Assembly (NCBI GenBank): GCA_044228355.1
Contig: JBGAVA010000001.1
Location: forward strand, 16,229-80,228
Origin: Candidatus Saccharimonadales bacterium
Lineage (GTDB): Bacteria; Patescibacteriota; Saccharimonadia; Saccharimonadales; UBA4665
Length of the DNA: 64,000 nucleotides
Direction of reading: 5' to 3'
The notes beneath the pieces were generated by a model that did not search any database, was not told the DNA's origin, and saw only the letters and a list, made by a program, of their open reading frames with translations. Every line of letters begins with the position of its first letter. The first letter of the stretch is position 1. Shown piece after piece: positions 12,337 to 54,634 of this stretch. The position numbers and the translations under genes were made by a program.

Positions 12337-12754
12337 CGCTCGTATGCCGACAAGGCCTATCTGTCGATCAGTGAATGCAGGCTCTCGCGCCTGTCTGCCG
12401 ACAGGCAGGCCTGCAGGCGACTTCCTCTTTTGCCGGAAAAGAGGAAGCGAGAAACCTCGGCCAAGAGCTCCAGCTCTTGGTGAAATGCTGCTCATTTTTA
12501 CAACCGGAGAGCACGAACGCCTCCGGCTAAGTACTCTCCGACCCTATCGGGCAAGCTCAAAAAAACCTGACAACATTTCATCCATGAGCCTCCACATGGC
12601 CCCTACTAGCTATATCCACCTTCGCCAAGGCTTCGGTGGATGGTTCCTAGCGGCCTTCGGCCGCCCCCACCCCCTACCGTCCACCATCTACCCCCTACTC
12701 CACCCGGGACGGCAAAACAACAGAGAACCACTACACCCCATTTGCATTTTGTGG

Positions 12755-24858: not shown

Positions 24859-24871
24859 CAACCAGCAACCA

Positions 24872-24912
24872 AGTGAAATGCTAATCTGTTAGCACATCAT
24901 CCCAGGTGAAAA
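24872..24912 (-). repeat. copy of the TTTCACCTGGGATG composite element
   Basis: The plus strand reads AGTGAAATGCTAATCTGTTAGCACATCATCCCAGGTGAAAA. Confidence 0.6.
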
Positions 24913-24985
24913 AGAAGAGATTTGTTAGGATATCTAGACCAGACCAGTCGCATCTTGGCCATGTCTGTTGTATACTGTGTGGCAC

Positions 24986-38103: not shown

Positions 38104-38130
38104 TTGGCACTCTTGAGTTTTGAGTGCTAG
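38104..38130. promoter_or_regulatory. CIRCE operator (TTGGCACTC-N9-GAGTGCTAG) upstream of hrcA
   Basis: Close match to the CIRCE consensus TTAGCACTC-N9-GAGTGCTAA, 18 nt before the hrcA ATG. Confidence 0.85.
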
Positions 38131-38147
38131 TTTGATATGCTTATGTC

Positions 38148-38846
38148 ATGAGTCCTAGGCAAAAGCAAATTCTCACCGCTATCATCGAGCAGTACGCAGA
38201 GGTAGCCGTGCCCGTGGGCAGCAGCTTGCTGGCAAAAGTCTTTGGCGTTTCCAGCGCAACCATCCGTGCCGAGATGGCCGAGCTTGAAGCCATGGGTTTC
38301 ATACGGCAGCCACACACCAGCGCTGGGCGTATCCCGACAGACAAAGGCTACCGCTTTTATGTCAATAATCTCGCCGAAGCTCAACAGGCGCAGCCAGAGC
38401 GCCGCGCCGAACGCGCACTGACCGCTCGCCTAGGCAGCAGTGGCTTGCCGGAGCGTGCCATCCGCAACGCCGTCGACACTCTGGTAGAATTGACGCACAA
38501 TCTTGGACTTGCCACCATAGGCAACCAGCTGTACATTTCGGGCCTTTCCAACCTTTTTGGTCAGCCCGAATTTCACGGCGGAGCCCAGGTGCAACAGGTA
38601 GCGGCTTTACTTGATAATCTCGAACCGTGGTTGCGCGAAGCCGCGCCGAACCAGCCGCTCAGTGTCTACATAGGTGCCGAAAACCCCATCGGCCGTACGG
38701 CAGACGTTAGCCTTATCATCAGCCGATTCCGCAGCCCGTTTAGCGACCACAGTTACATCGGTACGCTCGGCCCAACTCGTCAAAGCTACCGCGACGTCAT
38801 GTCTCTCGTCGCTCACGCCGGCAAAACCTTGGAGGAAGTTCTGTAA
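38148..38846 (+). CDS. hrcA: heat-inducible transcription repressor HrcA (short form, 232 aa)
   Basis: N-terminal winged helix RQKQILTAIIEQYAEVAVPVGSSLLAKVFGVSSATIRAEMAELEAMGFIRQPHTSAGRIPTDKGYRFYV. Confidence 0.85.
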   Translation: MSPRQKQILTAIIEQYAEVAVPVGSSLLAKVFGVSSATIRAEMAELEAMGFIRQPHTSAGRIPTDKGYRFYVNNLAEAQQAQPERRAERALTARLGSSGLPERAIRNAVDTLVELTHNLGLATIGNQLYISGLSNLFGQPEFHGGAQVQQVAALLDNLEPWLREAAPNQPLSVYIGAENPIGRTADVSLIISRFRSPFSDHSYIGTLGPTRQSYRDVMSLVAHAGKTLEEVL

Positions 38847-39952: not shown

Positions 39953-39979
39953 TTAGCACTCTTGACATGTGAGTGCCAA
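39953..39979. promoter_or_regulatory. CIRCE operator 1 upstream of dnaK, overlapping the TTGACA -35 box
   Basis: TTAGCACTC-TTGACATGT-GAGTGCCAA. TTGACA at 39962-39967 and TACAAT at 39986-39991. Confidence 0.85.
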
Positions 39980-40000: not shown

Positions 40001-40027
40001 CTAGCACTCTAGGTATGTAACTGCTAA
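40001..40027. promoter_or_regulatory. second, degenerate CIRCE-like operator upstream of dnaK
   Basis: CTAGCACTC-TAGGTATGT-AACTGCTAA. The left half-site is good and the right half-site has diverged. Confidence 0.5.
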
Positions 40028-40045: not shown

Positions 40046-41959
40046 ATGTCAAAAATCATCGGTATCGACCTCGGTACGACCAATAGCGCCATGGCTGTCA
40101 TGCAGTCGGGCAAGGCCGAGATTATCACGAACAGCGAAGGCAACCGCACTACGCCATCTGTGGCCGCGGTCAACAAAAAAGGTGAACGTCTGGTGGGGCA
40201 AATCGCTCGTCGCCAGCAGGTTACCAACCCCAAAGACACCATCTACGAAGTAAAGCGTCTCATAGGCCGCAATTTTAACGACAAAGAAGTCCAGCGTGAC
40301 CTGAAACTCATGGGCTACAAGATCGTAAAGAGCGGCAACAGCACCAAAGTGGAGATGGCAGGCAAAGAGTACAGCCCAGAGGAGATCAGCGCCATGATCC
40401 TTGGTAAGCTCAAGGCCGACGCCGAGGCGTTCCTGGGTGAGCCAGTCACCGAAGCTGTCATAACCGTGCCAGCCTACTTCGATGACAGTCAACGCCATGC
40501 CACCAAAGACGCCGGTAAAATTGCTGGGCTCGAAGTCAAACGCATCATCAACGAACCGACGGCAGCGGCTCTGGCGTACGGCCTCGATAAGAAAAAGACC
40601 GATGAAAAGATCGTCGTCTACGACCTCGGTGGCGGCACCTTCGACGTTTCCGTGCTTGAGCTCGGTGACGGCGTGTTTGAGGTGAAATCTACGAACGGCG
40701 ATACTCACCTGGGAGGCGCCGACTTTGACCGCGTCATCATAAACTACTTTGCCGACGAGTTCAAAAAAGAACACGGCATAGATATCCGCGAGGACAACGC
40801 CGCCATGCAACGTCTGCGCGACGAAGCCGAAAAGGCCAAGATCGAGCTATCTTCGTCTCAGGAAGTCGATATTAACCTGCCATTCTTGACCGCCGACGCC
40901 GATGGTCCGAAGCACTTCGAACACAAGCTTACTCGCGCCAAGCTGGAAGAACTGGTCGGCGACCTCATAAGCAAGACGGCCGAACCGTGCCAAAAGGCAC
41001 TGAAAGACGCCGGTCTCAAGAGCAGCGATATCGACAATGTTGTCCTGGTGGGCGGCATGACTCGCATGCCAGCCGTGCAGGAAAAAGTGAAAAACATCTT
41101 CGGCAAAGAACCGATGAAGGGCGTCAACCCAGACGAAGTCGTTGCCGTGGGTGCGGCCATCCAGGGCGGCGTGCTGCAGGGTGATGTCAAAGACGTGCTC
41201 CTGCTCGATGTGACGCCGCTTTCTCTGGGTATCGAAACCATGGGTGGTGTCATGACGCGGCTCATAGAACGCAACACCACCATCCCAACCAGCAAATCCG
41301 AGGTGTTCTCAACAGCGGCAGATAACCAACCTCAAGTGGAAGTCCACGTACTGCAGGGTGAGCGTGAAATGGCTGAGGGCAATAAATCTCTCGGTCGCTT
41401 CATCCTCGACGGCATCCCGCCAGCCCCGCGCGGCATACCGCAGATAGAAGTTACCTTTAATATCGACGCCAATGGCATCCTAAATGTCACCGCCAAAGAC
41501 AAAGGCAGCGGCAAAGAGCAGAATATCACCATCCAAGGCTCTGGCAGCCTCGACAAAGACGAAGTCGAGAAAATGGCCAAAGAAGCCGAAGCTCACGCCG
41601 AAGAAGACAAGCAGAAAAAGGAAGCCGTCGAAGCACGCAACCACCTAGACACCGCCGTCTACCAGGCCGAAAAGCTGAAGGGTGAAGAAAAGGTCGGGGA
41701 AGACGACAAAAAGGCCATAGATGAAGCCGTCGAAAAGGCCAAAAAAGTCGTCGCCGACGAAAAAGCCGACAAAGACGTGCTCGAAGCCGCAGCCAAAGAG
41801 CTCAACGACGTCCTCATGCCCATCGGCGCCAAGATGTACGAGCAGGCTGCGCCTGCAGACGAACAAGTAGCAGATGACAATGAGCAGACAGACTCCAAAA
41901 AAAAGAAAAGTGACGACAAAGACGCGCCAATCGAAGGCGAAGTCATAGACGAAAAATAA
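40046..41959 (+). CDS. dnaK: chaperone DnaK (Hsp70)
   Basis: [28 protein letters not shown], and an acidic C-terminal tail. Confidence 0.97.
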
Positions 41960-42003
41960 TAAGCCGGGTCGCAAATGCCTCTCAGTAATGAAATGGAGTA
42001 AAA

Positions 42004-42354
42004 ATGGAAGTAAAAGATTTTGTTGCACAAATATTAGTTGACCTCGACGCAGCAATTGAAGAAGCGAGAAAAAATACATCAAGAGAAATACACTTCTCAG
42101 TAAATAAAAATAATCGCACGGTCGAGTTTGACATTGCTGTTAGTACTGAACAAGGTTCGTCAAAAAGTGGAAAAGCAGGTATTAAGGTTCTTGGTCTTGC
42201 GGATGGTGACGCGAGTCTGTCGTCTGAATCAAAAAACTCGGTGGTAAGCAGGATTCAGTTTGGAGTTTACATAGCAGAACAAACCAAAAATGAGGAGCGC
42301 GAACAGACTGCGGCGTTCGAAGCGCGCAATAACCAGGTCCCGTCTTTTATATAA
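42004..42354 (+). CDS. small protein resembling the trypco2 (trypsin-co-occurring / effector-associated) domain
   Basis: The pattern FVAQILVDLDAAIEEARKN..IHFSV..VEFDIAV....GKAGIKVLGL..G.......S.IQFGV matches the recalled trypco2 layout of helix, beta-hairpin, G-K-x-G and a beta strand. SD GGAG lies 5 nt upstream. Confidence 0.4.
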   Translation: MEVKDFVAQILVDLDAAIEEARKNTSREIHFSVNKNNRTVEFDIAVSTEQGSSKSGKAGIKVLGLADGDASLSSESKNSVVSRIQFGVYIAEQTKNEEREQTAAFEARNNQVPSFI

Positions 42355-42382
42355 CAGAGGCCAAGATCTATTCAGAGTGATT

Positions 42383-42440
42383 CAGAGGACAGTTCTCTGA
42401 AAGTTGTGGTTTCAATTGGCTTGTAAGAAATAAAATGGAG
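42383..42440 (+). repeat. degenerate copy of the hairpin plus TTTCA-box element
   Basis: CAGAGGACAGTTCTCTGAAAGTTGTGGTTTCAATTGG...GAAATAAAATGGAG aligns with 45694-45750. Confidence 0.5.
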
Positions 42441-42480
42441 TAGTGCAAACTATGCTTAGCCAAGGAACCTTGAGTAAATA

Positions 42481-42990
42481 TTATTCGTTGAGTGTGTCGC
42501 CAAGTTGTATTGAGTAAGATAGGGCGGCCCCGAACATAGCTACATGTCTTGGCTGGGGACTATCTAAGTGTGCTTCAACTACGTGCATAACTGCTTCATG
42601 CGCTGAGGGTTCAACTCTACGAAAACTATCTAGAACGTCTAGTAGTACATCTGTCTTACTTTTTGTGGTGTCAACTAACAAACCAGCAATATTGTGCCGC
42701 TGTACAATAACTGCGTGCGGTATCTGAGGGGGTATTAAACCTACGATTACTTCATGCACACTTACGCCCAAAGATGCCCATTCAGCGTCAATCGGGCGTA
42801 GAGCTCTTCCTACGAGTTGTGTAATGAGTACATGATTTATACCCCACCGTGGGTTGGATCTTTCCGCGATATCATGCATGGCAGTAAGTACAGCCGCGTC
42901 CCGTACAGCATCAACAATTCCGGAATGTGTCTCCAGGCTCATAAGACTGGAATTATAGAATTCCCTAGGGCTGCCTGCAAGCACTATCAT
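42481..42990 (-). CDS. hypothetical protein (169 aa), possible HD-superfamily fold
   Basis: The all-alpha-looking sequence has H(S)-x18-HD spacing (ETHSGIVD...LTAMHDIAE) and later His/Asp residues. This is a weak motif-only call. Confidence 0.35.
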   Translation of the reverse strand: MIVLAGSPREFYNSSLMSLETHSGIVDAVRDAAVLTAMHDIAERSNPRWGINHVLITQLVGRALRPIDAEWASLGVSVHEVIVGLIPPQIPHAVIVQRHNIAGLLVDTTKSKTDVLLDVLDSFRRVEPSAHEAVMHVVEAHLDSPQPRHVAMFGAALSYSIQLGDTLNE

Positions 42991-43068
42991 TATTGTTTCG
43001 TGTCGGGGGCACCATTGAACTATCCTATGAGGGTCATAATTTGATCCGGAAAAAGGACATCACAGCCA

Positions 43069-44202
43069 TTACACTTTTAATAGTTGGGATGCAAGTGCCT
43101 GTGTGATGGCTACGATTTTCGAATTGTCTAGAGCGGGTTCTTTGTACAGGTCAGCTGTTACGGCCAAGAAGCGCTGTGGGATGGAGTTGGCTGCCTGATC
43201 GAATTGGTCAAGTACGCTGTCTTTGCCTAGAACAAGCGTGCGGTATTCATCCTCTTCTAGCTCTGAGGCTTTGCCTGTTCTAAATTTGTTCAAGAGTTCT
43301 ATTTCACGGTTCAACCGTTTTACGCTAGAGTTACCACTATCAAGAAATGTTCCCAAAAAGCCGCGTAGTCCAGCATAGGGAGCAAAGTGCTCCTTGCCTA
43401 TCAACTTGTTGTACCATGAATAATCTCTTAGCCCGTGTATGTGTCCGGCGGCGTATGCAAGACTTGAATCCAGTTTACCGACATCTTTTTCCGGGCCGAA
43501 TTGTCGGACTAGCTCGTTAAACTCAGGTGTTCGTAGCAGTAGATTACCGTAAAGGTGCAGGATATTATCATGTACGGCACTCCATGCGGTTGTCTCGAGC
43601 GATACTCCTTCTTGTGGGGTGGGCGCAACAAGTACAGTTCCGTTCGACATGCCTTCAGTGAGCATACTACCTGGATATGACATACCGCCATCATTGGCTT
43701 CGTAATCCCTAAGACTTACAGAGTCCCCAAGACCCGGTACTATATCATTTAGATCACCTAATGCGCTTGCGCCAAGCGTACACCAAATATTCAAAAACTC
43801 GCTGTTGCCTTTAACTCCTCTTTCGCTGCGAATACCAAGCCTCTTGGCAACAATTGCTGCCGGGTTATTACTCTGTTCGGCTGGCTGACCCGGCTCAAGT
43901 GGCGCAATCAGGATGGATTGCTCAAGGTTCCATCGAATGACTCCGAACTGGCCACCACCCAACACTGGAGTTTTTTGATCGTCTAGCCCGAGGTCTTTGG
44001 CTCGAGCTTGGTATGCGCTAACGTCAGACGGGGTGACGTTAAACCTTAATAGGGTATTTCCAAGCCTGGCCGCTGGGTTATGATAAATATCCAAAACAAC
44101 TTCACTTATATGTGATTCGGATAAGGAAGGGTCTGAGTCCGGGTTTGCTAGCGTAGATCCGACTAGCTCAAAGCCAGGAGAAAAAGAATTTTGCTGGAGC
44201 AT
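43069..44202 (-). CDS. hypothetical protein (377 aa), unknown function
   Basis: The start is set at MLQQNSF. A TTGCGT-17-TACAAT promoter ends 9 nt upstream, so the mRNA is apparently leaderless. The AT-rich 86-codon extension in the ORF track is rejected. Confidence 0.5.
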   Translation of the reverse strand: MLQQNSFSPGFELVGSTLANPDSDPSLSESHISEVVLDIYHNPAARLGNTLLRFNVTPSDVSAYQARAKDLGLDDQKTPVLGGGQFGVIRWNLEQSILIAPLEPGQPAEQSNNPAAIVAKRLGIRSERGVKGNSEFLNIWCTLGASALGDLNDIVPGLGDSVSLRDYEANDGGMSYPGSMLTEGMSNGTVLVAPTPQEGVSLETTAWSAVHDNILHLYGNLLLRTPEFNELVRQFGPEKDVGKLDSSLAYAAGHIHGLRDYSWYNKLIGKEHFAPYAGLRGFLGTFLDSGNSSVKRLNREIELLNKFRTGKASELEEDEYRTLVLGKDSVLDQFDQAANSIPQRFLAVTADLYKEPALDNSKIVAITQALASQLLKV

Positions 44203-44268
44203 AATTATCGTATTGTATACTAACATGGCCAAAAACGCAAGATAATCAATTAGACATCTATTAACCTC

Positions 44269-44328
44269 CCATACATCCTGCACACTTTCACTAACATAGA
44301 AAGGAGTGAAAGTGTGCAGGATGTATGG
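44269..44328. repeat. perfect 24-bp-arm palindrome (CCATACATCCTGCACACTTTCACT-N12-AGTGAAAGTGTGCAGGATGTATGG)
   Basis: Read directly from the sequence, in the divergent promoter region between the 377-aa gene and fic. Confidence 0.9.
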
Positions 44329-44367
44329 TAGGTAAATGTCGATAGTTGTTTTCTGCTTGACAGCGGA

Positions 44368-44436
44368 GTTTACATTGCTGTTGCAGATGTAAACTAAATG
44401 TGCTATATTGTTTACATTAAGCAATAGGATGTAAAC
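44368..44436 (+). promoter_or_regulatory. fic promoter (TTGCAG-17-TATATT) flanked by two identical operators GTTTACAT-N11-ATGTAAACTAAAT
   Basis: IR1 (44368-44394) overlaps the -35 box and IR2 (44410-44436) ends 5 nt before the ATG. Their centres are 42 bp apart. Confidence 0.6.
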
Positions 44437-44441
44437 TAAAT

Positions 44442-45605
44442 ATGGGCATAATTGGTACATATCGTCAACAACCGCAAGATTTCAAAGCGTTTATACCGAA
44501 CGATTTTCCGCCTGCAGTCGAACTGCATTTTTCGCGCTCCATACACGCAAAGCATACCGAAGCCATCCGTTTGCTCGGAAAACTGGACGGTATTACGCAG
44601 CTGCTTCCTGATAAGGATTATTTCCTCGAAATGTTTGTACGAAAAGACGCATCGTCCTCCAGCCAGATAGAGGGCACAAAAGCAACGATGATGGATGCTA
44701 TTGAAGCTGCAAATATCGAGAGAAGTTCCGATCTGCCGACAGATGTTGACGATATCCTCCACTATATAGATGCGTTGAATTACGGTATAAAGCGAGCAGA
44801 AGAGTTTCCTTTTACGCTGCGTTTTATCCGCGAACTGCACGAAAAGCTCATGCTTGGTGCTCGCACAACGCACAATGCATACCCTGGTGAATTTCGGTCG
44901 TCACAAAACTGGATCGGCGGAACTCGTCCAGGAAATGCACGGTTCGTCCCGCCTCCGGTTCATGAAATGAACGCGGCACTGGGTCAGTTCGAAAACTTCA
45001 TACATGCCGAAGATGACTTCCCTCCTTTAGTAAAGGCGGCTTTTTTGCATGCACAATTTGAAACAATCCATCCCTTCGCCGATGGCAATGGCAGAACGGG
45101 CAGAATGATAGTCACCATGTTTCTTTGGCATGAGCATTTGCTAGAGCTGCCGGTGCTGTATCTGTCTACATATTTTAAGAAACACCAGAATGTGTACTAT
45201 GAAAGGCTCGATGGATACCATTCGGAAAGCAATAGCATCGAAGAGTGGGTTGATTTTTTCTTGGATGGAATCATCGAAGTCGCTCAGTCAGCAATCGAAA
45301 CATGTAAAGCCATAACCGAGCTGAGAGAACGTGACATGAGGAAAGTGCAGGCTCTCGGGAAGGCTGCCGCACCCATGACGCTAGCGGTCGTGCGAAATCT
45401 ATACAGGCTACCGACGGTTGGCATCGCTGATGTAGTGGACTGGACAGGATACAGCCGACCGGGTGCGTACAAAATCATAGACCGGTTGGTAAATATGGGC
45501 ATACTGCATCCCACCAAGGAAGCCGACACGTATGGCCAGAAGTATATGTACAAGGACTACGTTGCGCTATTTGGTGACGCCGAGCAAACCGGCAGCGCTG
45601 CTTAA
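44442..45605 (+). CDS. fic: Fic-family protein (AMPylase-type) with N-terminal DUF4172-like region, intramolecular inhibitory motif and C-terminal winged-helix
   Basis: Catalytic HPFADGNGRTGR and inhibitory (S/T)xxxE(G/N) = SSQIEG. The N-terminal GTYRQQPQDFKAFIPNDFPP is typical of this subfamily. Confidence 0.85.
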   Translation: MGIIGTYRQQPQDFKAFIPNDFPPAVELHFSRSIHAKHTEAIRLLGKLDGITQLLPDKDYFLEMFVRKDASSSSQIEGTKATMMDAIEAANIERSSDLPTDVDDILHYIDALNYGIKRAEEFPFTLRFIRELHEKLMLGARTTHNAYPGEFRSSQNWIGGTRPGNARFVPPPVHEMNAALGQFENFIHAEDDFPPLVKAAFLHAQFETIHPFADGNGRTGRMIVTMFLWHEHLLELPVLYLSTYFKKHQNVYYERLDGYHSESNSIEEWVDFFLDGIIEVAQSAIETCKAITELRERDMRKVQALGKAAAPMTLAVVRNLYRLPTVGIADVVDWTGYSRPGAYKIIDRLVNMGILHPTKEADTYGQKYMYKDYVALFGDAEQTGSAA

Positions 45606-45693
45606 GAGAACGGTCTCCGTCCCACCTATACACCCTCGTCCCCCTGCCCTCGATTCAGGATCCATGATTCAGAGGATTCAGGATTCAGAGATC

Positions 45694-45772
45694 CAGAGGA
45701 CTGTCCTCTGAAAGTCGTGATTTCACCTGGGAGGCCAGAAATAACAGAGGTTAATTTCGTCTCGGTATATGC
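45694..45772 (+). repeat. hairpin (CAGAGGACTGTCCTCTG) plus TTTCACCTGGGAGG composite element
   Basis: It lies directly after fic and is preceded by a GATTCAG x4 microrepeat at 45652-45690. Confidence 0.7.
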
Positions 45773-45827
45773 TACGGAAAAAACCAGAAAATGGCGTTTC
45801 AGACAAGCTAGTAGTATACTCGAACTT

Positions 45828-46400
45828 ATGAAAGCACAAGCAGCACAAAACAAAGAACAATCTAACGTCAAAGCACCAGGCCAGCATATGTCAGAGCGAA
45901 AGGAGCTTTTGCTCTTTTTGCTGATACCGAGTTCGGTAATCGCACTAGTCGCTGCTTTACTGTGGTTTCCAAGTATGTTGGCGCGCCCTAAGTACGACTT
46001 TATATATTCATCGTGCCCATCCTATGAATGTGATTTTGATTTTACCGTGAAGAACGGCCGTATCTCGAGGGCATATGACGGCGGTTATCTCGGCGATGGG
46101 TACAACTATAATCGACAGATTCCAAGGCTGTATTACTACGATGTAGCAACTGGTTCAACCGAGCAGCTAGACGAATCAAAAGCTCAGACCTATAATCTCC
46201 GCGGCTCAAATGTTTCACCTGATGGTTACCAGCTGGAGAGGGCCAACGGTGAAGGGTCGGGTGGATTTCTCTTTTGGGGCGGTTCTGGTGACTACGGCTG
46301 GTATCTAAAAGATGGTTTGAAAAAGAAACGGGTGAATCTGTCGTCGAGCAGCAGCTACTACACCGAAAATATAACGCTCATAGGTTGGGTCGAGGAGTAA
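45828..46400 (+). CDS. membrane-anchored extracytoplasmic protein, unknown function
   Basis: The start is set at MKAQAAQ. TM helix LLLFLLIPSSVIALVAALLWF, then a Tyr/Gly-rich beta-like domain. Confidence 0.5.
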   Translation: MKAQAAQNKEQSNVKAPGQHMSERKELLLFLLIPSSVIALVAALLWFPSMLARPKYDFIYSSCPSYECDFDFTVKNGRISRAYDGGYLGDGYNYNRQIPRLYYYDVATGSTEQLDESKAQTYNLRGSNVSPDGYQLERANGEGSGGFLFWGGSGDYGWYLKDGLKKKRVNLSSSSSYYTENITLIGWVEE

Positions 46401-46403
46401 GCG

Positions 46404-47492
46404 ATGGAAAATGTATCCGAGAAAAACGTCATACTGGGAAATATTAAGGAAGGCCTTGCCTCAGGCATAATATCCGTTCAAGATTTACGCAACCTATTGC
46501 CGCCAGAGATTTCCATTACCGAGCCAGCAGAGCCAGCAGAGCCAGTCGAGACTCCGGTTTCACAGGTTCTACAACCTACTCCTGTTCAGGAGGAAACTGC
46601 GAGACCAAGGGCCGAAACAGGGAAGAAACTGTCGCTCGTAGACACGTTGTTCTACCTAGCGGGCGGGGTTTTATATGCCTCGCTCATGGTTATGGCTTTC
46701 CAGGCGGGTGCTGATTCCCGCGCGGCTATCATGCTAGTGTGCGGTGTGACTCTTTGGGCGCTGACGTTCGTACTCGGCAGACGGCAGTCATCAAGCGAAA
46801 ACCGCGAAGGGTTTGTTAATGCCATGCTGCTTACGGGCTGTTTAGCGGTGATTTCCGGCGGAGTTATGGCTGCATCTCAGGTAGCCCAAGACCTAAATAT
46901 CCAATTTGGTTACGTGCTTGCCGTCGCGTTACTATTGCTCGGTGGCATGCATCTCTACCTGGACCGTCTCTTTCGCCACACCATCCTGGTGGTATTTGGT
47001 ATGTTCCTGGTTGTAGCTGCTTTTCCGAGCATACTTTCGGCGATGCTCAGCGGACAAAATCTGCCCATGGATGTCTGGACACTGATAGGGATGGGAACGG
47101 GTGCCTTGACGGCCGCGGCGGGATATGTGGCATCTCACACCGCACCGGGTCGTGAGCATTTGCGCGATTCGTTTTCCTCTATCGCAGCGTTCTTTGTACT
47201 GAGTTCGGTGTACGGCGCTAGTATTGGTAGCGAAGCTGCCGCTCTTTGGAGTATAGTACTGCCGTTGCTTATATACGGCGCGTTTTACCTGAGCATAAAG
47301 CGACGTAGCAAGAACTTCCTGGTGACAGGTTCGTTGTTTCTTGTCTTATTCATCATAACCATTGCGTTCAGATATTTCTCTGGTTTCGGTGCTGCATTCT
47401 CGCTGCTTGTGTCGGCGACGGCGCTTTTGGCGACTGCCTTCATGGCTAGTAGTATCAACAAACGTTACATAAAGTCTTCAGCGCAAGAATAA
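46404..47492 (+). CDS. polytopic membrane protein (about 9 TM), unknown function
   Basis: It starts 4 nt after the previous stop. A soluble N-terminal segment of about 70 aa is followed by hydrophobic helices. Confidence 0.55.
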   Translation: MENVSEKNVILGNIKEGLASGIISVQDLRNLLPPEISITEPAEPAEPVETPVSQVLQPTPVQEETARPRAETGKKLSLVDTLFYLAGGVLYASLMVMAFQAGADSRAAIMLVCGVTLWALTFVLGRRQSSSENREGFVNAMLLTGCLAVISGGVMAASQVAQDLNIQFGYVLAVALLLLGGMHLYLDRLFRHTILVVFGMFLVVAAFPSILSAMLSGQNLPMDVWTLIGMGTGALTAAAGYVASHTAPGREHLRDSFSSIAAFFVLSSVYGASIGSEAAALWSIVLPLLIYGAFYLSIKRRSKNFLVTGSLFLVLFIITIAFRYFSGFGAAFSLLVSATALLATAFMASSINKRYIKSSAQE

Positions 47493-47527
47493 ACAAACGG
47501 TAGGTCGATACAGTAAATGACTTTGCC

Positions 47528-47575
47528 GATTTCACCTGGGATGTAGGAAATAACGGTGTTGATTTCATCTTGTGC
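47528..47575 (+). repeat. copy of the TTTCACCTGGGATG composite element
   Basis: GATTTCACCTGGGATGTAGGAAATAACGGTGTTGATTTCATCTTG. Confidence 0.7.
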
Positions 47576-47598
47576 GAGGTCTGACCTACTTTGGCATG

Positions 47599-49155
47599 CT
47601 ATGCGCTACTTGGACGATTTTGACGATATTGTCCTATTGCACGAATAACATCTTCGTGGCCGTACACATATGGCTGTATGCCTGTTTTACGTTCATGCCT
47701 CATCATTTGACGCATGAGCATAGCTACGATGCCGTTTATATCAGCAGGAGACATTTCTTCGGTTAGGGCAGCCAGATCTGCGAACTTGATTTCATCCATA
47801 GATGTGAGTATGGAGGCGTCATCGAGCACCTCTTCACCTATTACCGCAAACATACCGGCTCTTTTGTAAATTAGCGTTCGCCATATCTCTTCCCTTGCCG
47901 CTAAATTGGGCAACGGAAATTTTACGGTTCGGTCGAATCGACCCTGTCGCAGGAGTGCAGGGTCTATACCGTCAATGCTGTTTGCGGCTGCGACCGTGAG
48001 CACCAGAGGGTACTCAGTGCTGGTTAGAATTGTCTTGAACTCTGCTATCAAAGAGCGAGACAGCCCAGAGTTACCACCAGCGTTATTTGTAAAGAGACCG
48101 TCAAATTCATCGAAAAACAAGATGACAGGTTTGCCGCCATGGCCTTTTTGGGTTGACTCATATAGTTCCCGTAAGTTTCTCTGCGTCGTACCTACATACG
48201 GGTCAAGTATATCGGTTACGCTAACTTCATTTAGTTTATATCCGTACTCTCTGGCGATCCCTCGTACAACGCTGGTTTTTCCTGTGCCCGCTATTCCCTC
48301 TAGCAGAAGTGCGCCAGGTTTATCTACGCCATATTTTTTGAGCAGAGACTGGGGAGTTAAAGCATCATCAACCCATTCCCTAATGGCGTCTATTTGTACC
48401 CGTAAACCCCCAAGATTTGCGAGTAATGGATAGCTTTCGTGCCCTGGCACCCCTGTATAGCGCGCAAGCTTCTTTCCGGGTTGCTCGGATTGTGGGTTAG
48501 GGTCTTGCTCGCTAGTTACACCTGGTAGAGAAACTCGAAATACGATTTGCTCGTTTGGGTCGTCTATCGTCGTTACTGAGTTTGCTATCATACCAGTTAT
48601 GCGGGCGAGTTCGACAACAGTTTGCGTTATGTTTAAGTCTTTTGAAGAAAGAACTGCCGGCGAGTCATTTTCCGCTCGAGTGTCAACGGCCGTGATACTG
48701 ATCATGTCTTGGCTGTCATGATTTGAGCTCGCATCGTTAGCTACGCGTTTTATCAGGAAGCCCCGTTCGCTTGATCTGTGTTCGACGTACATAGTGTTGC
48801 CATCTTGATAGCCAGGGAAAGTGTATTCGTTATGTAAAGTCCTGCCCAATTGACCGACTGCCCGTCTAATGCGACGCCGTCTGTTATTGTTACCTGCTTC
48901 AGTTGTAGTAACAGCAATCGTAGAATGGCAATTGTATGAGTCGGGACCAATTGGTTCGAAGTGCATTTTAACTTCCAGCCCGCCTGGATGGGCTTGATCG
49001 ATAGTTCCGATGCAGCGGACGACGTTTGGGTCAATGTCTGCTTCCTCGCCCGTAAACACAACCGAGATTGGTTTTTTGTTCCAGCTCAAAGGGGGCGGAG
49101 GAGTAGTGTCGGGTGCTCTCTCAAAGGGGCTTGTCATAATATGAGACAATAACAC
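47599..49155 (-). CDS. classical AAA+ ATPase (CDC48/FtsH-clade AAA module) with a roughly 260-aa N-terminal domain of unknown function
   Basis: Walker A EGIAGTGKTS, Walker B ILFFDEFD, and the second region of homology DPALLRQGRFDRTVKFPLP. Confidence 0.8.
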   Translation of the reverse strand: MLLSHIMTSPFERAPDTTPPPPLSWNKKPISVVFTGEEADIDPNVVRCIGTIDQAHPGGLEVKMHFEPIGPDSYNCHSTIAVTTTEAGNNNRRRRIRRAVGQLGRTLHNEYTFPGYQDGNTMYVEHRSSERGFLIKRVANDASSNHDSQDMISITAVDTRAENDSPAVLSSKDLNITQTVVELARITGMIANSVTTIDDPNEQIVFRVSLPGVTSEQDPNPQSEQPGKKLARYTGVPGHESYPLLANLGGLRVQIDAIREWVDDALTPQSLLKKYGVDKPGALLLEGIAGTGKTSVVRGIAREYGYKLNEVSVTDILDPYVGTTQRNLRELYESTQKGHGGKPVILFFDEFDGLFTNNAGGNSGLSRSLIAEFKTILTSTEYPLVLTVAAANSIDGIDPALLRQGRFDRTVKFPLPNLAAREEIWRTLIYKRAGMFAVIGEEVLDDASILTSMDEIKFADLAALTEEMSPADINGIVAMLMRQMMRHERKTGIQPYVYGHEDVIRAIGQYRQNRPSSA

Positions 49156-49227
49156 AAAAGAGAATTAAAACAAATATTATTTTATTCAAACTTTTCATTT
49201 CAGGATTGAGATATCACTACGAACCAA

Positions 49228-49278
49228 GGTTTCACCCGGGATGCGGGAAATAACAGAGCTGGGGTTTACCTGGGATTG
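49228..49278 (+). repeat. copy of the composite element with two boxes (GGTTTCACCCGGGATG ... GGTTTACCTGGGATTG)
   Basis: Read directly from the sequence, between the AAA+ gene start and the 49286..49780 gene end. Confidence 0.7.
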
Positions 49279-49285
49279 AGAGAGG

Positions 49286-49780
49286 TTAGCGGTACTCGAG
49301 TAGCCAGGTCTTGCCAGCGTCCATTGTGCAGGTGTGGAGTTCGGCTCGTTCGCCGCGGCGCAGAGTGAAGTCCTGGGTTTTGCAGCCGTTCAGATCGATA
49401 CCCTTTTCCTGTAGGGCGCTGCCCTGTTTCAGGGAAACACCGTTCACTGTCAGGCGTATCTGGTCGCTGTCAACTGATTTGATAGTGAGCGGCAAGCGGT
49501 CCCCATTCAGCTGCCGTAGGTTTACGGTGTTGCCAACAGCGGGCTGCCCCGTAAACACGGTCTTTTTGGGGTCTTGTTCCTCTGAAGACCCAGTCCACGC
49601 CTGCTCGTCCACTTGCAATGTCCCGGCGCTTTGCGGCTGTCCGGTTGCAAAGAAAATAACCAAGCCGGCAAAAATCAGACCTAATACGATGAACATGAGT
49701 AAGCGTGCCTTCGATTTTTCTCTGAAAAAATTCCTTTGTCCCATGCAATCTAGTATAGCAGCAGTATCCAGTGCCGCCAC
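49286..49780 (-). CDS. membrane-anchored protein (164 aa), unknown function
   Basis: TM helix LLMFIVLGLIFAGLVIFFA followed by a beta-rich ectodomain. Confidence 0.5.
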   Translation of the reverse strand: MAALDTAAILDCMGQRNFFREKSKARLLMFIVLGLIFAGLVIFFATGQPQSAGTLQVDEQAWTGSSEEQDPKKTVFTGQPAVGNTVNLRQLNGDRLPLTIKSVDSDQIRLTVNGVSLKQGSALQEKGIDLNGCKTQDFTLRRGERAELHTCTMDAGKTWLLEYR

Positions 49781-49854
49781 GCCCCTTTTTGCGCAGTGCC
49801 AACGTGTTGTGCGGTATGGTATGGTTGTCAGCGGCGGCGTGATATAGTGAGCAT

Positions 49855-50643
49855 ATGAAACAATTCATAGTAGCTGCGTTGGTCGTACTCGGCCTCGTGG
49901 TCGCGTCTGTGCATCAGGTTGGTGCGGCCGAGCAGTATGTCAATGATGCAGATATCAACCTTATCGATGCGGCCACGAGCGCCATAAACGCGTTCGATGA
50001 AGAAGGCCAGAAGGAGAGTTTTTCCATAGAAGCCGTAAAGGCAAAATCTGAAGCAGCAAGCCAGAAGTTATCTGCGCTCGAAAAACATTCGTTTACAACC
50101 GAACTCGGCACAGAGTACTCAAAAGCAGGCGCAGATCTGCAGGCGAAAGCCAAGACTCTTCGCGAAGCTATGACTGCGTTTGTTGCGACCATGGAGGGTA
50201 GCGACGAGGCTGCGTACAATGCCGCCCTCGATGCCTACACGGCAGCCGAAGATACGTTTGGTGCATCGTACGACGCCCTGAACGCCGCAGTTGAGGCTCA
50301 AAATACCGTAGTCGAAAAAGATACGAATCAGAAGCAAGCCATGTATCTGGCGGCCCTTATTCTGACCGGACTGGCCGCAGCCGCCTCCTGGGCGTGGGCT
50401 ATCCTGAAAAAGGAAGCTGACGCAGTTCTTCAGGGCGCACAAAAAGCAGTTGCCATCAATTCACTGTGGCCTCTGGGGGGTGCCATCATTACGTTTGTGA
50501 CATTTCAGACGGCCAAAGATGGCAGTGGTAGCTACACCATCATGTGGGGCTTGATTGTCTTCGGTTTGATAGCATTCGGCAAGTCCATTATGGAATACGT
50601 CGCAGCGCGAAAGCTCACCGGCGCAAAGAAAGCCGCCAGCTGA
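49855..50643 (+). CDS. secreted alpha-helical protein with C-terminal TM helices, unknown function
   Basis: Signal peptide MKQFIVAALVVLGLVVASVHQVGA, an Ala/Glu-rich helical region, then three hydrophobic helices. Confidence 0.5.
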   Translation: MKQFIVAALVVLGLVVASVHQVGAAEQYVNDADINLIDAATSAINAFDEEGQKESFSIEAVKAKSEAASQKLSALEKHSFTTELGTEYSKAGADLQAKAKTLREAMTAFVATMEGSDEAAYNAALDAYTAAEDTFGASYDALNAAVEAQNTVVEKDTNQKQAMYLAALILTGLAAAASWAWAILKKEADAVLQGAQKAVAINSLWPLGGAIITFVTFQTAKDGSGSYTIMWGLIVFGLIAFGKSIMEYVAARKLTGAKKAAS

Positions 50644-50665
50644 ATGGCGTAATAAGAGCTAGGGA

Positions 50666-50710
50666 CGTTTCACCTGGGATGGCAGGATAACAGATAGGGG
50701 TTTCACCTCG
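50666..50710 (+). repeat. copy of the composite element (CGTTTCACCTGGGATGGCAGGATAACAGATAGGGGTTTCACCTCG)
   Basis: Read directly from the sequence, 23 nt after the stop of 49855..50643. Confidence 0.75.
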
Positions 50711-50784
50711 TTTCTTGGAAAGCCGGCTTTGTCATGGTGTGTACTCTGCTTGTGCTACAGTATAGATAACAAGTAGGAGGGTAT

Positions 50785-53706
50785 ATGTTTTGGCTCATTA
50801 TTCTCGGGATTATCGTCATCGTCATACTAACGGGGCGAGATAAAACACCGACGCCACCCTCGAACGACATCAATCAGCAGTGGGTCGACTACATTGCGGC
50901 CTACCGGCAAAACGTGAAGTCAAAGTCGGAAAAAGCGCTACTCTCCCGTATGCTCGATGATCTTGTGGCGCAGGGCATGCCGACGCCTTCAGCTTCGCTT
51001 CTTGCCACAGCTGAAGTGGTCGACCGTGAGGAATACGAAAGATTCCGACTTGAGACGTCTGAGGCGCACGGGTCTGAGGCCGGGGTGCAAGCCGCAGCCG
51101 TAGCTCAGCCCGAAAGCATTGTCCAGGCGGCTCCCGACTGGCAGGCAGAGTTGCCGCAGGCCACGGCTGCAGAACCGGTCAAACTGGACAATACGACACT
51201 GCTACTGTACTTCGGTGCTTTTCTGTTTATCGCCTCGGCTGGGTTGTTTGTGGCACTCTCCGGCGCGTACGGGGAGCTGCGCGTGGCTACGATACTAACG
51301 GTGATGGCAGCACTCTACTTCGGTGGGCTGTGGCTGTACGATAATAAACCCAAACTGCAATCGGCCAGCTACACGTTTATCGGTATGGGGTTGATGCTTG
51401 CGCCGCTGGCGGGCCTGGCGACGTACTCGTACGTGATGCGTGATCGTCCGGAGCTGGTGTGGCTACTGACATCGGTACTGTGTCTGGGGCTGTACGGCCA
51501 TGCCCTGCGTAAGCTCAAGACGCCGCTGATGGAGTATATCTTTATCGGGACATTCGTTTCGCTGTTTGAGTCGGCCATATCGGTACTGAAACTGCCGCTG
51601 TACTACTACGGCTGGGGTTTTGCGGCTGTCGGGCTGTGCATGCAGGCCTGGGCTCTGTACCGGAAAAAGGCCACCGATTATGATGAGCCGACAACCATGA
51701 GCAGCGGTTTACTGATACCGCTTTCAATCATGACAGCTCTGTATATGCTGCCGGATTACGGCGTCGTTCAGCTGGGCGTCTCGCTGCTGCTGGCCGCCCT
51801 GTATTACGGTCTTCAGGCCTGGAAGGCGCAGGACGACTATGTACGGGTGAACAATGCCGTGGTATCACAAGTGTCACTGCTCTTTAGCCTGTCCTGTTTT
51901 GCGTATGGCTGGCAACACAAGCTCTCTCACGTTGTGCTAGTACTGATGGCGCTTGGTTTCATACAGTTGCTGGTGCTTATGACGAAGGCGGCCTCGGCGC
52001 TCACAAAATCAGTTGCGACCGTTGGATTTCTGTCGCTCGTTACGGCCGCTCTTCTGGCTTGGCAATATCCGGGAGAACAGGTGGCCGCCACGGTATTCGC
52101 CGCCGCCTACGGTGTACTCATCTGGATTCACCAGCAGCGGTCCGATATGTACGTTGTGGCTACACTCGTAGCGGCTACACTGCCGTTTAGTATCGGTCTA
52201 CGAGCCGTGGAAACACCGTGGCACGCGTGGGGTCTGGCGGCAGCTACGTTTGGTATTGCCCTGGGTCAGCTCGCGGCGTTTGCGCTGACGAAGCGGACGG
52301 CTCTGGACACAGACGAGTGGCGTACCAGTTGGCGCAGCATGCTGCTGCTCACGCTTGGTCTGGGCTGTTTTGTCTCTGTCTTTGCTGGTTCTGTGGCGAT
52401 TTTGGTTGCCGGTGTAGCCGTGGCGCTCACCACTTACGGAATAGGGCATTACGATGCTTCACCCGCCTGGCGGCAGAGCAGCAGCCTTTTTGCGGCGCTT
52501 CCAGCTGTGTTTTCGGTGTCCAGACCGAGTGCGTGGCTGGCTGCGTTATTTGTAGGATGCGCCTGGAACCTCTTGTTGGTAGTCGCCAACCGGTTGGAAC
52601 TGGCTCGTTGGCTTGGTAGTGCGCTCTGGCTCCTACTGCCGGTTGGGTTTGCCCGAGTTTTTCCATCTCTCGACACGGCTTCATGGTACGCAGCCAGCTA
52701 TTTTGTCTGCATGGTCGGTATGGTAGTGGCCCGCGCGGTAGCTCAAAAGCGCATCGCGCACCTGCCGATAGCATTGTCTGAGTTGGAGCGGCGCCTTCAT
52801 AGTGATAGCCAGGCGTATGTCGCTGGGTATGCGCTGGCAGGCATAGTATCGTTTGTAGCGAGTCTGTCCGGGCCGCGTATGTTGCCGGCTATTATGGGGA
52901 CTTTGCAGGCTGCGCTGTGGGTATACATCGCTCGCAGTGTTGAACGCCGACCAGACATAATCGGGCTGGTACCGGTACTGCTCCAGGGTGCGCTGTGGGG
53001 GACGTACCGCGACGCATCGTCGGTCAATCTGTATGTATTTGGCAGTACCATGATAGCCCTTGGCGGCTACCTGTATGGGTGGCTCCAATCTGCCGGAAAA
53101 TCGACTGTCAACTACGGCCGTCAGCTGCAGACGGCGTCGCTTACCATGCTTTACCTGGCACCGGCAACGGCTATGTTCTTCGAGACGCATTGGACGATGC
53201 CCCTCGGTTTGGCTGTGGCTGGGCTGGCCACGCTGCACGCGGCATGGGGACGCGCTCAGAACGAGCGGGAGATGGCGGGCGGAGTGGTTGTGCTGGCTCT
53301 GATGTGGCTGCTTGGCTACAACGGTGTCGATAACACGCAGGTCTACACGCACATTCTCGCCGCGTTATTCGGGCTGTACGCCTACTGGCGTAACCGCTTG
53401 GGCGACAAAGAGACGAGCCACAGCTATCTTGTAGCTATGCTGTGTGCCGCCACCATTCCGCTGGGCTTTGAGGTAATGGGCGGCACTGGCGGCGGCCTGT
53501 ACGGCTGGTGGTTCTTGGGCGAACAAGTTGCCATCATGCTGTTCGGTATGGCCATAGGCGACCGTTTTGTTACTCGCTGGGGCATGTACGTAGCGGTCGG
53601 TGCAGTGCTCTACCAGCTGCGTTCACTAGCCTGGCTGTCGCTAACGCTGCTGGCACTGTTCCTCATCGGCCTCGCCGTCTACCGCCTACAGAAATCCGAT
53701 AAATAA
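50785..53706 (+). CDS. very large polytopic membrane protein (973 aa, more than 20 TM; DUF2339-like architecture)
   Basis: SD AGGAGG lies 6 nt upstream. An N-terminal TM is followed by a soluble stretch of about 120 aa and then continuous hydrophobic helices. Confidence 0.6.
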   Translation: MFWLIILGIIVIVILTGRDKTPTPPSNDINQQWVDYIAAYRQNVKSKSEKALLSRMLDDLVAQGMPTPSASLLATAEVVDREEYERFRLETSEAHGSEAGVQAAAVAQPESIVQAAPDWQAELPQATAAEPVKLDNTTLLLYFGAFLFIASAGLFVALSGAYGELRVATILTVMAALYFGGLWLYDNKPKLQSASYTFIGMGLMLAPLAGLATYSYVMRDRPELVWLLTSVLCLGLYGHALRKLKTPLMEYIFIGTFVSLFESAISVLKLPLYYYGWGFAAVGLCMQAWALYRKKATDYDEPTTMSSGLLIPLSIMTALYMLPDYGVVQLGVSLLLAALYYGLQAWKAQDDYVRVNNAVVSQVSLLFSLSCFAYGWQHKLSHVVLVLMALGFIQLLVLMTKAASALTKSVATVGFLSLVTAALLAWQYPGEQVAATVFAAAYGVLIWIHQQRSDMYVVATLVAATLPFSIGLRAVETPWHAWGLAAATFGIALGQLAAFALTKRTALDTDEWRTSWRSMLLLTLGLGCFVSVFAGSVAILVAGVAVALTTYGIGHYDASPAWRQSSSLFAALPAVFSVSRPSAWLAALFVGCAWNLLLVVANRLELARWLGSALWLLLPVGFARVFPSLDTASWYAASYFVCMVGMVVARAVAQKRIAHLPIALSELERRLHSDSQAYVAGYALAGIVSFVASLSGPRMLPAIMGTLQAALWVYIARSVERRPDIIGLVPVLLQGALWGTYRDASSVNLYVFGSTMIALGGYLYGWLQSAGKSTVNYGRQLQTASLTMLYLAPATAMFFETHWTMPLGLAVAGLATLHAAWGRAQNEREMAGGVVVLALMWLLGYNGVDNTQVYTHILAALFGLYAYWRNRLGDKETSHSYLVAMLCAATIPLGFEVMGGTGGGLYGWWFLGEQVAIMLFGMAIGDRFVTRWGMYVAVGAVLYQLRSLAWLSLTLLALFLIGLAVYRLQKSDK

Positions 53707-53735
53707 CCCTAGATAAACGCAGCGCACGACATGGT

Positions 53736-53773
53736 TTGGCACTCTGGACTTTTGAGTGCTAGTTCGCTACAAT
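53736..53773 (+). promoter_or_regulatory. CIRCE operator (TTGGCACTC-N9-GAGTGCTAG) with adjacent TACAAT -10 box
   Basis: 53736-53762 matches the hrcA-proximal CIRCE almost exactly. TACAAT lies at 53768-53773. Confidence 0.8.
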
Positions 53774-54010
53774 TCTATATGGCGATTTATGATTATCAGT
53801 GGGTACCCCAAGGCGTCCAGCTGACTTTTACCAGAGCATATGCCGGGATATAAGTGCAGCACATCGCCGTGGGTCAACCTCGCGAGGTTTTATGTCAGAC
53901 ACAAGAATGTTCGGAAATACGCATTGCAAGATATTGACAATTAAGTCAAGAGGTGCTACTGTATTAGTACAACACCTCGCCCTCGTGGAAACACTCGGTG
54001 AGGTTTTTTA

Positions 54011-54634
54011 ATGGCCGACAGTACGCAAAAAAAGGCAATTGTCTATATAGACGGCGAGAACTTCCTGCATAGAGTCGAGGACGTTCTAAAATCAAAAGCA
54101 CTCATACAAAAGAAAGAGGAAATCATTCGTCTGGATATTACGACGTTATTTCAGGATATTTTCCCGGAGTATCAGCTAGAATTGAGGTACTACGGCACCA
54201 AAATTCGAACACATGATATTACCGATCCGACTGTTTTGGACCGTGCGAAAGTGATGGTTGAGTCTCAGCGGCGTTTGAAGCGCAATCTAGAAAATCAAGG
54301 GTGCGCCTTTATCGTCTCGGGTTCGCTGAGGCTGCGGCAAGTAACATGCAGCTCATGTCAAAAAACGAGCCACGTATTTAAAGAAAAAGGGGTCGATGTG
54401 CGTCAAGCTGTGGATATTGCGGAGGAAGCGGGAGAGGGCGTGTGCCAGATTATTGTCAGCTCGGATTCAGACTTGCTTCCTGCGCTGCACGCAGCAAGAG
54501 CTAAGGGAAGCCATCTCATATATGTGCACCATGCAGAGCAACCAAATTTTGCCATGATAAAAGCTGCCGGCGAAACGCGCGTGTTTACGCCAGCACAAAT
54601 TGTAGCCGCTTATCAGGAGGTAGAAAATGAGTAA
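54011..54634 (+). CDS. NYN (LabA/DUF88-like) domain protein, predicted RNase
   Basis: VYIDGENF at the N-terminus and [13 protein letters not shown] acidic motifs typical of the NYN/PIN-like fold. A central CSSCQ loop is present. Confidence 0.65.

Follow-up and report, generated by a model that had tools for sequence, protein, structure and literature searches.

Sites at which different whole-gene cassettes lie between the same two conserved genes in different strains or species were defined in Neisseria as minimal mobile elements (MMEs; Saunders & Snyder 2002 and Snyder et al. 2007, as quoted in PMC3082526). Integron arrays, and clusters of attC sites lacking an integrase (CALIN), consist of short modules parted by a co-oriented repeat family, and Correia elements, the DNA uptake sequence (DUS) of Neisseria, the uptake signal sequence (USS) of Haemophilus and the Rickettsia palindromic elements are present in many copies within restricted subclades. 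Here, a 64-kb stretch of a Candidatus Saccharimonadales genome (contig JBGAVA010000001.1; hereafter the window) was analysed, in which the heat-shock genes dnaK and dnaJ are held apart by an interval of about 12 kb with ten open reading frames (ORFs) between 41960 and 53735, one fewer than the original prediction made from this DNA had counted, and several copies of a repeat of about 45 nucleotides (nt), termed E. The reading that we favour, with fair though far from full confidence, is that the dnaK-dnaJ gap is a hotspot of the MME kind, whose modules are bounded by repeats and whose host lineage is naturally competent, and that its genes are not one system. For Saccharibacteria, natural competence has been shown, with integration of the incoming DNA through homologous recombination (PMC10633639).

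Interval genes were numbered i1, i2, i3, Fic, i5, i6, AAA+, i8, i9 and i10 from dnaK to dnaJ, repeat copies within the interval were labelled E1 to E5 in the same direction, and L-numbers denote loci or contigs of relatives, L216 and L201 being Logan assemblies and L209 a metagenome contig. Coverage of the genome was that of the 64-kb window, in which about 38 ORFs were scanned with Pfam.

Comparison of the interval among relatives

The comparison set was drawn from GTDB representative genomes and comprised their 80 best DnaK relatives (82–91% identity; nearly all from metagenome-assembled genomes of Saccharibacteria/Saccharimonadales, which assigns the window to a TM7 bacterium), whose dnaK loci were queried by tblastn with every window protein; both dnaK and dnaJ were present in 68. 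Across the 80 loci, dnaK was 82–91% and dnaJ 67–88% identical. The two genes lie 70–1700 bp apart in about 60 of the 68 relatives holding both, and expanded intervals were found in the closest relatives only (8.9 kb in L002, 7.1 kb in L003, 7.7 kb in L006, more than 10 kb in L005, 4 kb in L013 and 2.6 kb in L007, with L008 also expanded), with different contents in each. Interval contents were mutually different in L001, L002, L003, L005, L006, L007, L008, L013, L212, L216, L221 and L224. Judged from these alignments, the gap is a variable, accessory and lineage-specific locus. A common gene order between dnaK and dnaJ across the lineage, which the original prediction had named as counting against itself, was not found, the closest relatives differing in content. 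The accessory island proposed there stands in so far as the locus is variable and short in most relatives, but not as one 12-kb island, i10 being a conserved resident and the modules varying independently.

The gene i10 (50785–53706, + strand) encodes a 973-amino-acid (aa) polytopic membrane protein with at least 15 predicted transmembrane (TM) segments, and belongs to a family of 68 homolog clusters (30–98% identity, mostly about 945–1000 aa). Seven loci have a homolog within the interval, either immediately or a short way upstream of dnaJ (L002, L003, L005, L006, and the distant L057, L060 and L076 at 33–36% identity), with more in the metagenomic relatives L218–L222. GC content is 0.43–0.48 over 42–45 kb and 0.50–0.59 in the flanks, in agreement with the AT-richness first noted. 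At third codon positions (GC3), i1 (0.34), i2 (0.37), i3 (0.43) and AAA+ (0.45) fall below the core genes (0.61–0.69), and i10 (0.655) equals dnaK, dnaJ and lepA; the GC and codon profile proposed as a check thus sets off i1–i3 and AAA+, but finds i10 core-like. Since its family is conserved, syntenic with dnaJ and core-like in GC3, i10 is an ancestral resident beside dnaJ and not cargo.

In the relatives, cargo consists mainly of envelope, secreted or transport proteins, among them metallophosphatases, a BNR/sortilin-like protein, an S26 peptidase, peptidoglycan-binding proteins, major facilitator superfamily transporters, a Na/H antiporter, UbiA, DUF4386 and one IS200-like ORF. In the window, too, the predicted products of the interval genes apart from Fic and AAA+ are mostly envelope proteins. 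The IS200-like Y1 transposase ORF lies at 13179–13802 of L013 (Pfam E 2.7e-8), within the dnaK-dnaJ interval of this close relative. A link of this ORF to E of the kind that joins repetitive extragenic palindromes to their associated tyrosine transposases (REP/RAYT) was unsupported, E not being palindromic and the window having no Y1 gene.

Module changes and the repeat E

Five copies of an element of about 45 nt had been noted between the gene blocks, and all five were recovered at the positions first given, four as exact matches to the pattern RTTTCAMYYGGSNKGNNRGAAATAA (four in the window, all on the + strand; 0.01 expected) and the fifth as a degenerate copy. E1 (42381–42455, +; nhmmer E 4e-9) includes the hairpin CAGAGGACnGTyCTCTG, E2 (45694–45775, +; nhmmer E 1.8e-17) likewise includes a hairpin, E3 (47529–47581, +; pattern and nhmmer) forms the left border of the AAA+ module and is the breakpoint of a strain-level indel, E4 (49229–49279, +; pattern and nhmmer) forms its right border about 93 nt upstream of the AAA+ start, and the degenerate E5 spans 50667–50719 (+; nhmmer). 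Alignment of 26 copies gave a bipartite element of about 45 nt, made of TTTCACCTGGGATG, about 8 nt, ATAACAGRGG, about 5 nt and TTTCACCT. Box 2 (TTTCACCT) follows box 1 (TTTCACCTGGGATG) after 34–35 nt, with the spacing fixed and the spacer variable, and the central ATAACAGRGG is kept in the intergenic copies. E thus has two direct TTTCACC boxes and is not palindromic; the short hairpin AGAGGACnGTCCTCT precedes several of the interval copies.

The strain L216 is 97–100% identical over Fic, i5, i6, i8, i9, i10, the NYN-domain gene and dnaJ, and lacks the AAA+ gene. What it misses is exactly window 47555–49254, the 1700-bp AAA+ module: its blastn blocks (window 44285–47554 and 49230–55823) overlap by 25 nt, which are E, and its single E is a hybrid of the left part of E3 (CACCTGGGATG) and the right part of E4 (GCGGGAAATAACAG...GGGGTTTACCTGGG), which places the crossover within the GGGATG of E. 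One recent one-module difference therefore has its junction inside E. In L224, the order is an i1 homolog, E, an AAA+ homolog (45% identity) and E, both E copies being co-oriented, and the E-AAA+-E unit occupies slot 1, as against slot 4 in the window. In L212, dnaK is followed by a small gene, an AAA+ homolog (51%), E, a Na/H antiporter, and a hairpin with E; the first E precedes the AAA+ start by about 85 nt, an arrangement shared with the window, and the 5′ flanks are significantly similar (none of 300 shuffles reached the score). At the 3′ flank of the same L212 gene, a degenerate E was not significant, its score being reached in 149 of 300 shuffles.

Other modules recur separately, i5-i6 in the dnaK-dnaJ intervals of L007 and L008 (44–59% identity) and the i1/i2 pair, without i3 or Fic, in L221. 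In L007, a duplication of the controlling inverted repeat of chaperone expression (CIRCE) and of the first 41 dnaJ codons (12349–12471 and 14504–15616; 90% identity) flanks the i5-i6 insert, and looks like the footprint of integration by homologous recombination. These comparisons show that each module comes, goes or changes place as a whole, and that E stands where modules join. The cassette-like organisation that had been suggested is upheld in this sense, E standing at module borders and bounding both the strain indel and the change of slot. Exact-protein look-ups with window DnaK and DnaJ found no further strain variants.

By profile searches, nine more interval copies of E were found in L001, L003, L005, L013 and L212, all co-oriented with dnaK, and the L224 interval likewise bears E in this orientation. 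Counted over the window, L001, L002, L003, L005, L013 and L212, none of the 14 interval copies runs counter to dnaK, against 10 of the 11 copies elsewhere (Fisher p = 3e-6). By these searches, E appears confined to the subclade of closest relatives.

In the favoured reading, the gap would be a hypervariable accessory locus, an analogue of the Neisseria MME site at which different whole-gene cassettes come to lie between two conserved genes in different strains or species. It would contain the ancestral resident i10 beside the NYN gene and dnaJ, and the small gene i1 followed by four or five small modules, with 1–3 genes each and in mixed orientation ([i2, i3, Fic], [i5, i6], [AAA+] and [i8, i9]). 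The site would tolerate insertion because dnaK and dnaJ are transcribed as separate units, each under CIRCE/HrcA control, and we infer, by analogy, that exchange takes place through recombination of one E copy with another, through homologous recombination within the conserved flanking genes once DNA has been taken up by natural transformation, or through both.

The likeness to the Neisseria MME extends to two conserved flanking genes with whole-gene cassettes that differ by strain or species, a scan of the window without integrase or transposase, a naturally transformable host lineage, and the homologous recombination footprint at the L007 insert. The locus differs in that several modules are stacked in one site, parted by a co-oriented 45-nt repeat, and in that a module changes slot, which flank recombination alone does not explain; exchange by transformation is taken over here from the MME by analogy.

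Several observations weigh against this reading. The L216 junction, from the single strain-level polymorphism found, fits insertion of the AAA+ module and its deletion alike. E3 and E4 share identical blocks of just 7, 6 and 9 bases, which are short for RecA-dependent exchange, and a dedicated enzyme is conceivable, if improbable. The modules shared with L007, L008 and L221 stand there without detectable E, so that E is not required for cargo here. Finally, E is also found within housekeeping coding sequence, and its primary function may therefore be unrelated to the locus.

Copies of E outside the interval

The E core occurs eight further times in the 52 kb of the window outside the island, giving a total of 12 in 64 kb, where about 0 would be expected, and a density of about 1 per 5 kb; of the 12, 4–5 lie in coding sequence. 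One copy (24866–24911, − strand) lies 45–76 nt upstream of the ftsH start and divergent from it, and an E copy is placed likewise before ftsH in the unrelated contig L209 (1144–1189). The AAA+ gene shares this arrangement of ftsH, with a divergent E upstream of its start. Another copy follows a small conserved gene and occupies the orthologous site in L001 and L002.

Among the coding copies, one lies at 4284–4240 in a 3-hydroxyisobutyrate-dehydrogenase-like gene (3808–4650) and one at 61719–61675 in a 2-hydroxyacid dehydrogenase gene (61163–62083), and at both copies the alignment to PDB homologs is free of gaps. Since length is unchanged relative to these homologs, the motif was written into existing dehydrogenase sequence, in different frames and on different strands. 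In lepA (31576–33462), E stands in frame at 32236–32190 (− strand), where it codes for RGETDRGELTIPGEK within the linker that follows the G domain, a linker about 19 aa longer than in Aquifex aeolicus LepA and about 50 relatives. The E-derived, motif-bearing linker was seen only in the window, L001 and L002; a few relatives have unrelated longer linkers, and most have short ones. As a general account, E as an in-frame mobile insertion of the Rickettsia palindromic element kind was rejected, the dehydrogenase copies being ungapped; it fits the lepA linker only.

Known classes of repeat were also considered. RNAalifold on the 26 E copies gave 0 pairs, a covarying TTTC/GAAA stem was seen in island-type copies only and was dropped, and an Rfam scan of the window at gathering thresholds returned three tRNAs only, so that E matches no known RNA. 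A role of E as a promoter for sigma-70, or as an intrinsic terminator, was rejected, with hexamer spacing of 11–15 nt and inconsistent placement relative to genes; promoter-like matches in the locus numbered 14, against 13.0 in shuffles. A scan of IMG/VR with an E 14-mer gave more than 120 single matches, consistent with chance, and a metagenome scan with the island-type E pattern gave nine short contigs only. Like Correia elements, DUS, USS and Rickettsia palindromic elements, E has many copies in a restricted subclade, in intergenic and coding sequence, in several frames, on both strands, at orthologous sites and in variable regions. Unlike such dispersed elements it is not an inverted-repeat miniature transposable element, it is bipartite over 45 nt with a box spacing of 34–35 nt, which sets it apart from the DUS (10–12 nt) and from the USS, and two of its coding copies are not insertions, as those of Rickettsia palindromic elements are.

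Alternative explanations

In the first alternative, E would be the recombination site of a dedicated, recombinase-dependent cassette system akin to integrons, in which circular cassettes carrying one E recombine with a chromosomal E at GGGATG and build a co-oriented array downstream of dnaK. The orientation bias of E inside and outside the interval, the precise E3-left/E4-right hybrid in L216, the E-AAA+-E unit in different slots of different genomes, the mixed gene orientation within cassettes (as in integrons) and an identity between E copies that is short for general recombination all speak for it, and the locus resembles integron arrays and CALIN both in its short modules parted by a co-oriented repeat family and in a one-module difference between near-identical strains with its junction inside the repeat. 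However, no integrase or recombinase, including tyrosine recombinases and IntI, was found among the roughly 38 window ORFs scanned with Pfam, and E is a direct-repeat bipartite element without an attC-like palindromic fold or RNAalifold structure. Modules here hold 1–3 genes in both orientations, E sits in housekeeping coding sequence without indels and at conserved positions across species, which is unexpected for a cassette-only site, and deletion between short direct repeats accounts equally for L216. This explanation is considered unlikely. Of similarly low standing is a broader variant, in which the non-palindromic, bipartite, 45-nt E would be the site of an undescribed cassette-exchange mechanism of Saccharibacteria, used by a recombinase not yet known or as a combined DNA-uptake and recombination signal.

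In another alternative, no better placed, E would primarily be a protein-binding signal (a DNA-uptake sequence, a site for a regulator or nucleoid protein, or an orientation-dependent transcription insulator) that accumulates in free intergenic DNA, with its position at module borders and the one deletion as by-products. The eight core copies outside the island, including the in-frame, indel-free dehydrogenase copies and the one in the hypervariable lepA linker, the fixed spacing of the boxes around a variable spacer, the orthologous sites in L001 and L002, and the placement just upstream of the ftsH and AAA+ promoters speak for such a signal. At about 1 per 5 kb, however, E is sparser than known uptake sequences, which occur at about 1 per kb, and a passive site would predict neither the strict co-orientation in the interval nor the change of slot of E-AAA+-E. 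Natural competence of the lineage fits an uptake role, but no uptake sequence is described in the same report (PMC10633639).

The view of the original prediction, that the roughly 12 kb were acquired horizontally as a single conflict or defence island and that its Trypco2, HD, Fic and AAA+ proteins work together as a new multi-gene system, could draw on the SoFic match in PADLOC, the partial IetA and TRIP13 matches on the AAA+ core, the marginal Trypco2 match and the low GC3 of i1–i3 and AAA+, yet it is very improbable and largely refuted, because the modules are distributed independently (L216 keeps Fic without AAA+, no Fic gene lies near the AAA+ homologs of L212, L224 and L211, and i1/i2 occur in L221 without i3 or Fic), while i10 is a conserved resident, the HD call fails, neither IetS nor a trypsin-like protease was found, and nine of the ten proteins have no PADLOC match beyond a generic ATPase core.

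Fic protein

The gene recognised from the start as encoding a Fic enzyme (44442–45605, +) encodes a class II Fic AMP-transferase built like SoFic, with Fic_N, the Fic core and a C-terminal domain (PADLOC and Pfam Fic_N+Fic). The PADLOC SoFic model PDLC03963 is matched over its full length (E 1.6e-107, model positions 5–358 of 361), and residues 22–359 align to the SoFic-family structures 9vjc and 3eqx. The catalytic HxFx(D/E)GNGRxxR motif is intact as HPFADGNGRTGR, and the inhibitory N-terminal (S/T)xxxE(G/N) motif is intact as SSQIEG and aligned with that of SoFic. Against the NCBIfam SoFic equivalog NF046030 the protein scores 158.4 bits, under the 550-bit cutoff, which places it in the SoFic family but not among the equivalogs.

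SoFic is a single-gene anti-phage defence (PMC12249575; represented in PADLOC and DefenseFinder), with which the window protein shares domains and catalytic and inhibitory motifs; it is distant from the solved SoFic proteins (phmmer E 1e-27 to 1e-31), falls under the equivalog cutoff, and has no credible small ORF for an AS1-like antitoxin downstream. Defence by SoFic is unproven in any Candidate Phyla Radiation (CPR) bacterium, and the likeness here is one of sequence. Among the interval genes, Fic alone matches a named defence family, and a role as a stand-alone abortive-infection toxin is plausible. With one PADLOC system-level match among ten proteins, the interval shows no clustering of systems as in a defence island.

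AAA+ protein and remaining interval genes

The AAA+ gene (47599–49137, −; PF00004 E 1e-26) encodes a classical-clade ATPase of 512 aa with a 235-aa N-domain. As first read, it is a classical AAA+ protein with a novel N-domain: Walker A and B, sensor 1 and arginine fingers are invariant (GxxGTGKT, FFDEFD, AAANS, PALLRxGRFD), and the ATPase domain of an AlphaFold2 model matched Rpt, Mpa and p97 by Foldseek (E about 1e-17), and for the N-domain (model pLDDT 76, pTM 0.76) no match was found in PDB or BFVD. Proteins of this family are very rare: among 5.8 billion clusters, four relatives were found, partial or full-length. PADLOC matches to IetA (model positions 109–307 of 374) and, also partial, to TRIP13 are limited to the generic ATPase core. 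The IetS subtilisin-like protease was not found at the locus or beside AAA+ homologs, and Fic was not found near those of L212, L224 and L211. The protein thus shares Walker A/B and a second region of homology with arginine fingers with PAN/Rpt, Mpa/ARC, Cdc48/p97 and IetA, and, as a predicted structure, the ATPase fold of classical-clade unfoldases, but differs from these and from IetAS in having no proteasome, IetS protease or conserved partner gene, and an N-domain without detectable relatives. It is best described as a putative unfoldase forming an independent orphan module.

The gene that follows dnaK directly, i1 (42004–42354, +; 116 aa), had been called Trypco2-like, and the call holds narrowly, PF19631 being matched at 24.4 bits against a Pfam gathering cutoff of 24.2 (a marginal pass by 0.2 bits), but without the protease partner: no trypsin-like peptidase was found at the window locus or beside the i1 homologs of L001 (52%), L221 (66%) and L224 (69%). 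Convergent with it lies i2 (42481–42990, −; 169 aa), of a tiny family with nine homologs among 1.84 billion representatives; the i1/i2 pair was found again in L221. The HD phosphohydrolase originally read into i2 was rejected, the family alignment giving MH-x-[IV]-AE with a variable ‘D’ position, and neither a Pfam nor a PDB profile match was found. The near-ORFan i3 (43069–44202, −; about 377 aa, within a range of 377–463, the ORF being open to 44460) has a single non-self homolog (P0060, 48%) and no match in Pfam, PADLOC, NCBIfam or PHROG. Between i3 and Fic, in the divergent promoter region, lies a 33-nt inverted repeat (44260–44337; 94% complementary, 12-nt loop). The independent Logan assemblies L201 and L216 both begin at 44285, within this repeat.

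A two-gene membrane module is formed by i5 (1 TM; start at 45828 or 45888) and i6 (8 TM) at 45888–47492 (+; TM scan). TATACT −10-like boxes (45814–45830 and 24966–24987) lie 7–15 nt 5′ of the candidate ATGs of i5 (45828) and ftsH (24987), which suggests that these mRNAs are leaderless or have a very short leader. Tandem repeats resembling GATTCAGAG occupy 45651–45693, right before the E2 hairpin, with a 15-nt indel there in L216, and i6 has an 18-nt in-frame indel in its low-complexity N-terminus. The small predicted envelope proteins i8 (49286–49780, −; 1 TM) and i9 (49855–50643, +; signal or anchor plus 2 TM, divergent from i8) are kept in L216. For i5, i6, i8 and i9, no family matches were found in Pfam, PADLOC, NCBIfam or PHROG.

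Conserved flanks and CIRCE control

The left flank ends with dnaK (40046–41959, +; Pfam HSP70 E 1e-265), and Pfam verified hrcA, grpE and dnaJ, confirming that an hrcA-grpE-dnaK cluster ends at 41959. The HrcA protein (38148–38846) is only 232 aa long, as in all relatives. CIRCE-like inverted repeats were found at 38104, 39953, 40001 and 53736 (chance expectation 0.04), by a scan in which two tandem operators (39953–39979 and 40001–40027) stand 5′ of dnaK and one (53736–53762, +) overlaps a TACAAT −10 box at the promoter of the NYN gene and dnaJ. The right flank consists of the NYN-domain gene (54011–54634, +; Pfam) and dnaJ (54627–55739, +; Pfam). The CIRCE promoter that had been assigned to dnaJ is thus present at 53736, but the NYN gene, not mentioned at the time, intervenes between the two. 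Since it stands behind CIRCE in the same orientation as dnaJ, with an overlap of 8 nt between its end and the start of dnaJ, the NYN gene is probably heat-shock co-regulated with dnaJ. The NYN domain is a predicted RNase, and homologs lie between dnaK and dnaJ in L038, L059, L077 and L079.

Of the 68 relatives, 23 have a CIRCE at 45–56 nt before dnaJ, some of them with a short dnaK-dnaJ gap, and the independent CIRCE promoter of dnaJ is therefore older than the insertions. The separate dnaJ promoter probably makes the site permissive for insertion.

Elsewhere in the window, an 873-aa VirD4/TrwB-like coupling-protein ATPase (27075–29696) adjoins ftsH and murJ, and may be part of the type IV-like secretion apparatus reported to be important in Saccharibacteria.

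Significance

CPR genomes are about 1 Mb in size, few mobile elements are known from them and few of their defence systems have been recognised, and how accessory genes are acquired and shuffled in these bacteria is poorly understood. The dnaK-dnaJ locus provides a concrete case, with a fixed slot between heat-shock genes and 1–3-gene modules that differ between near-identical strains. Hotspots flanked by conserved genes are already known, as are Fic proteins of the SoFic type; what appear to be new are the stacking, in a CPR genome, of modules parted by a bipartite repeat that is co-oriented and specific to a subclade, and the presence of the same repeat inside housekeeping coding sequence. 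The label of a conflict island fits one gene, Fic, and not the locus, which corrects an over-reading. The junctions in a defined repeat make E directly testable in Saccharibacteria, because these bacteria can now be transformed. If the improbable reading of E as the site of an undescribed exchange mechanism were true, E would let tiny competent genomes swap single-gene modules, including Fic and AAA+, at a protected dnaK-dnaJ slot.

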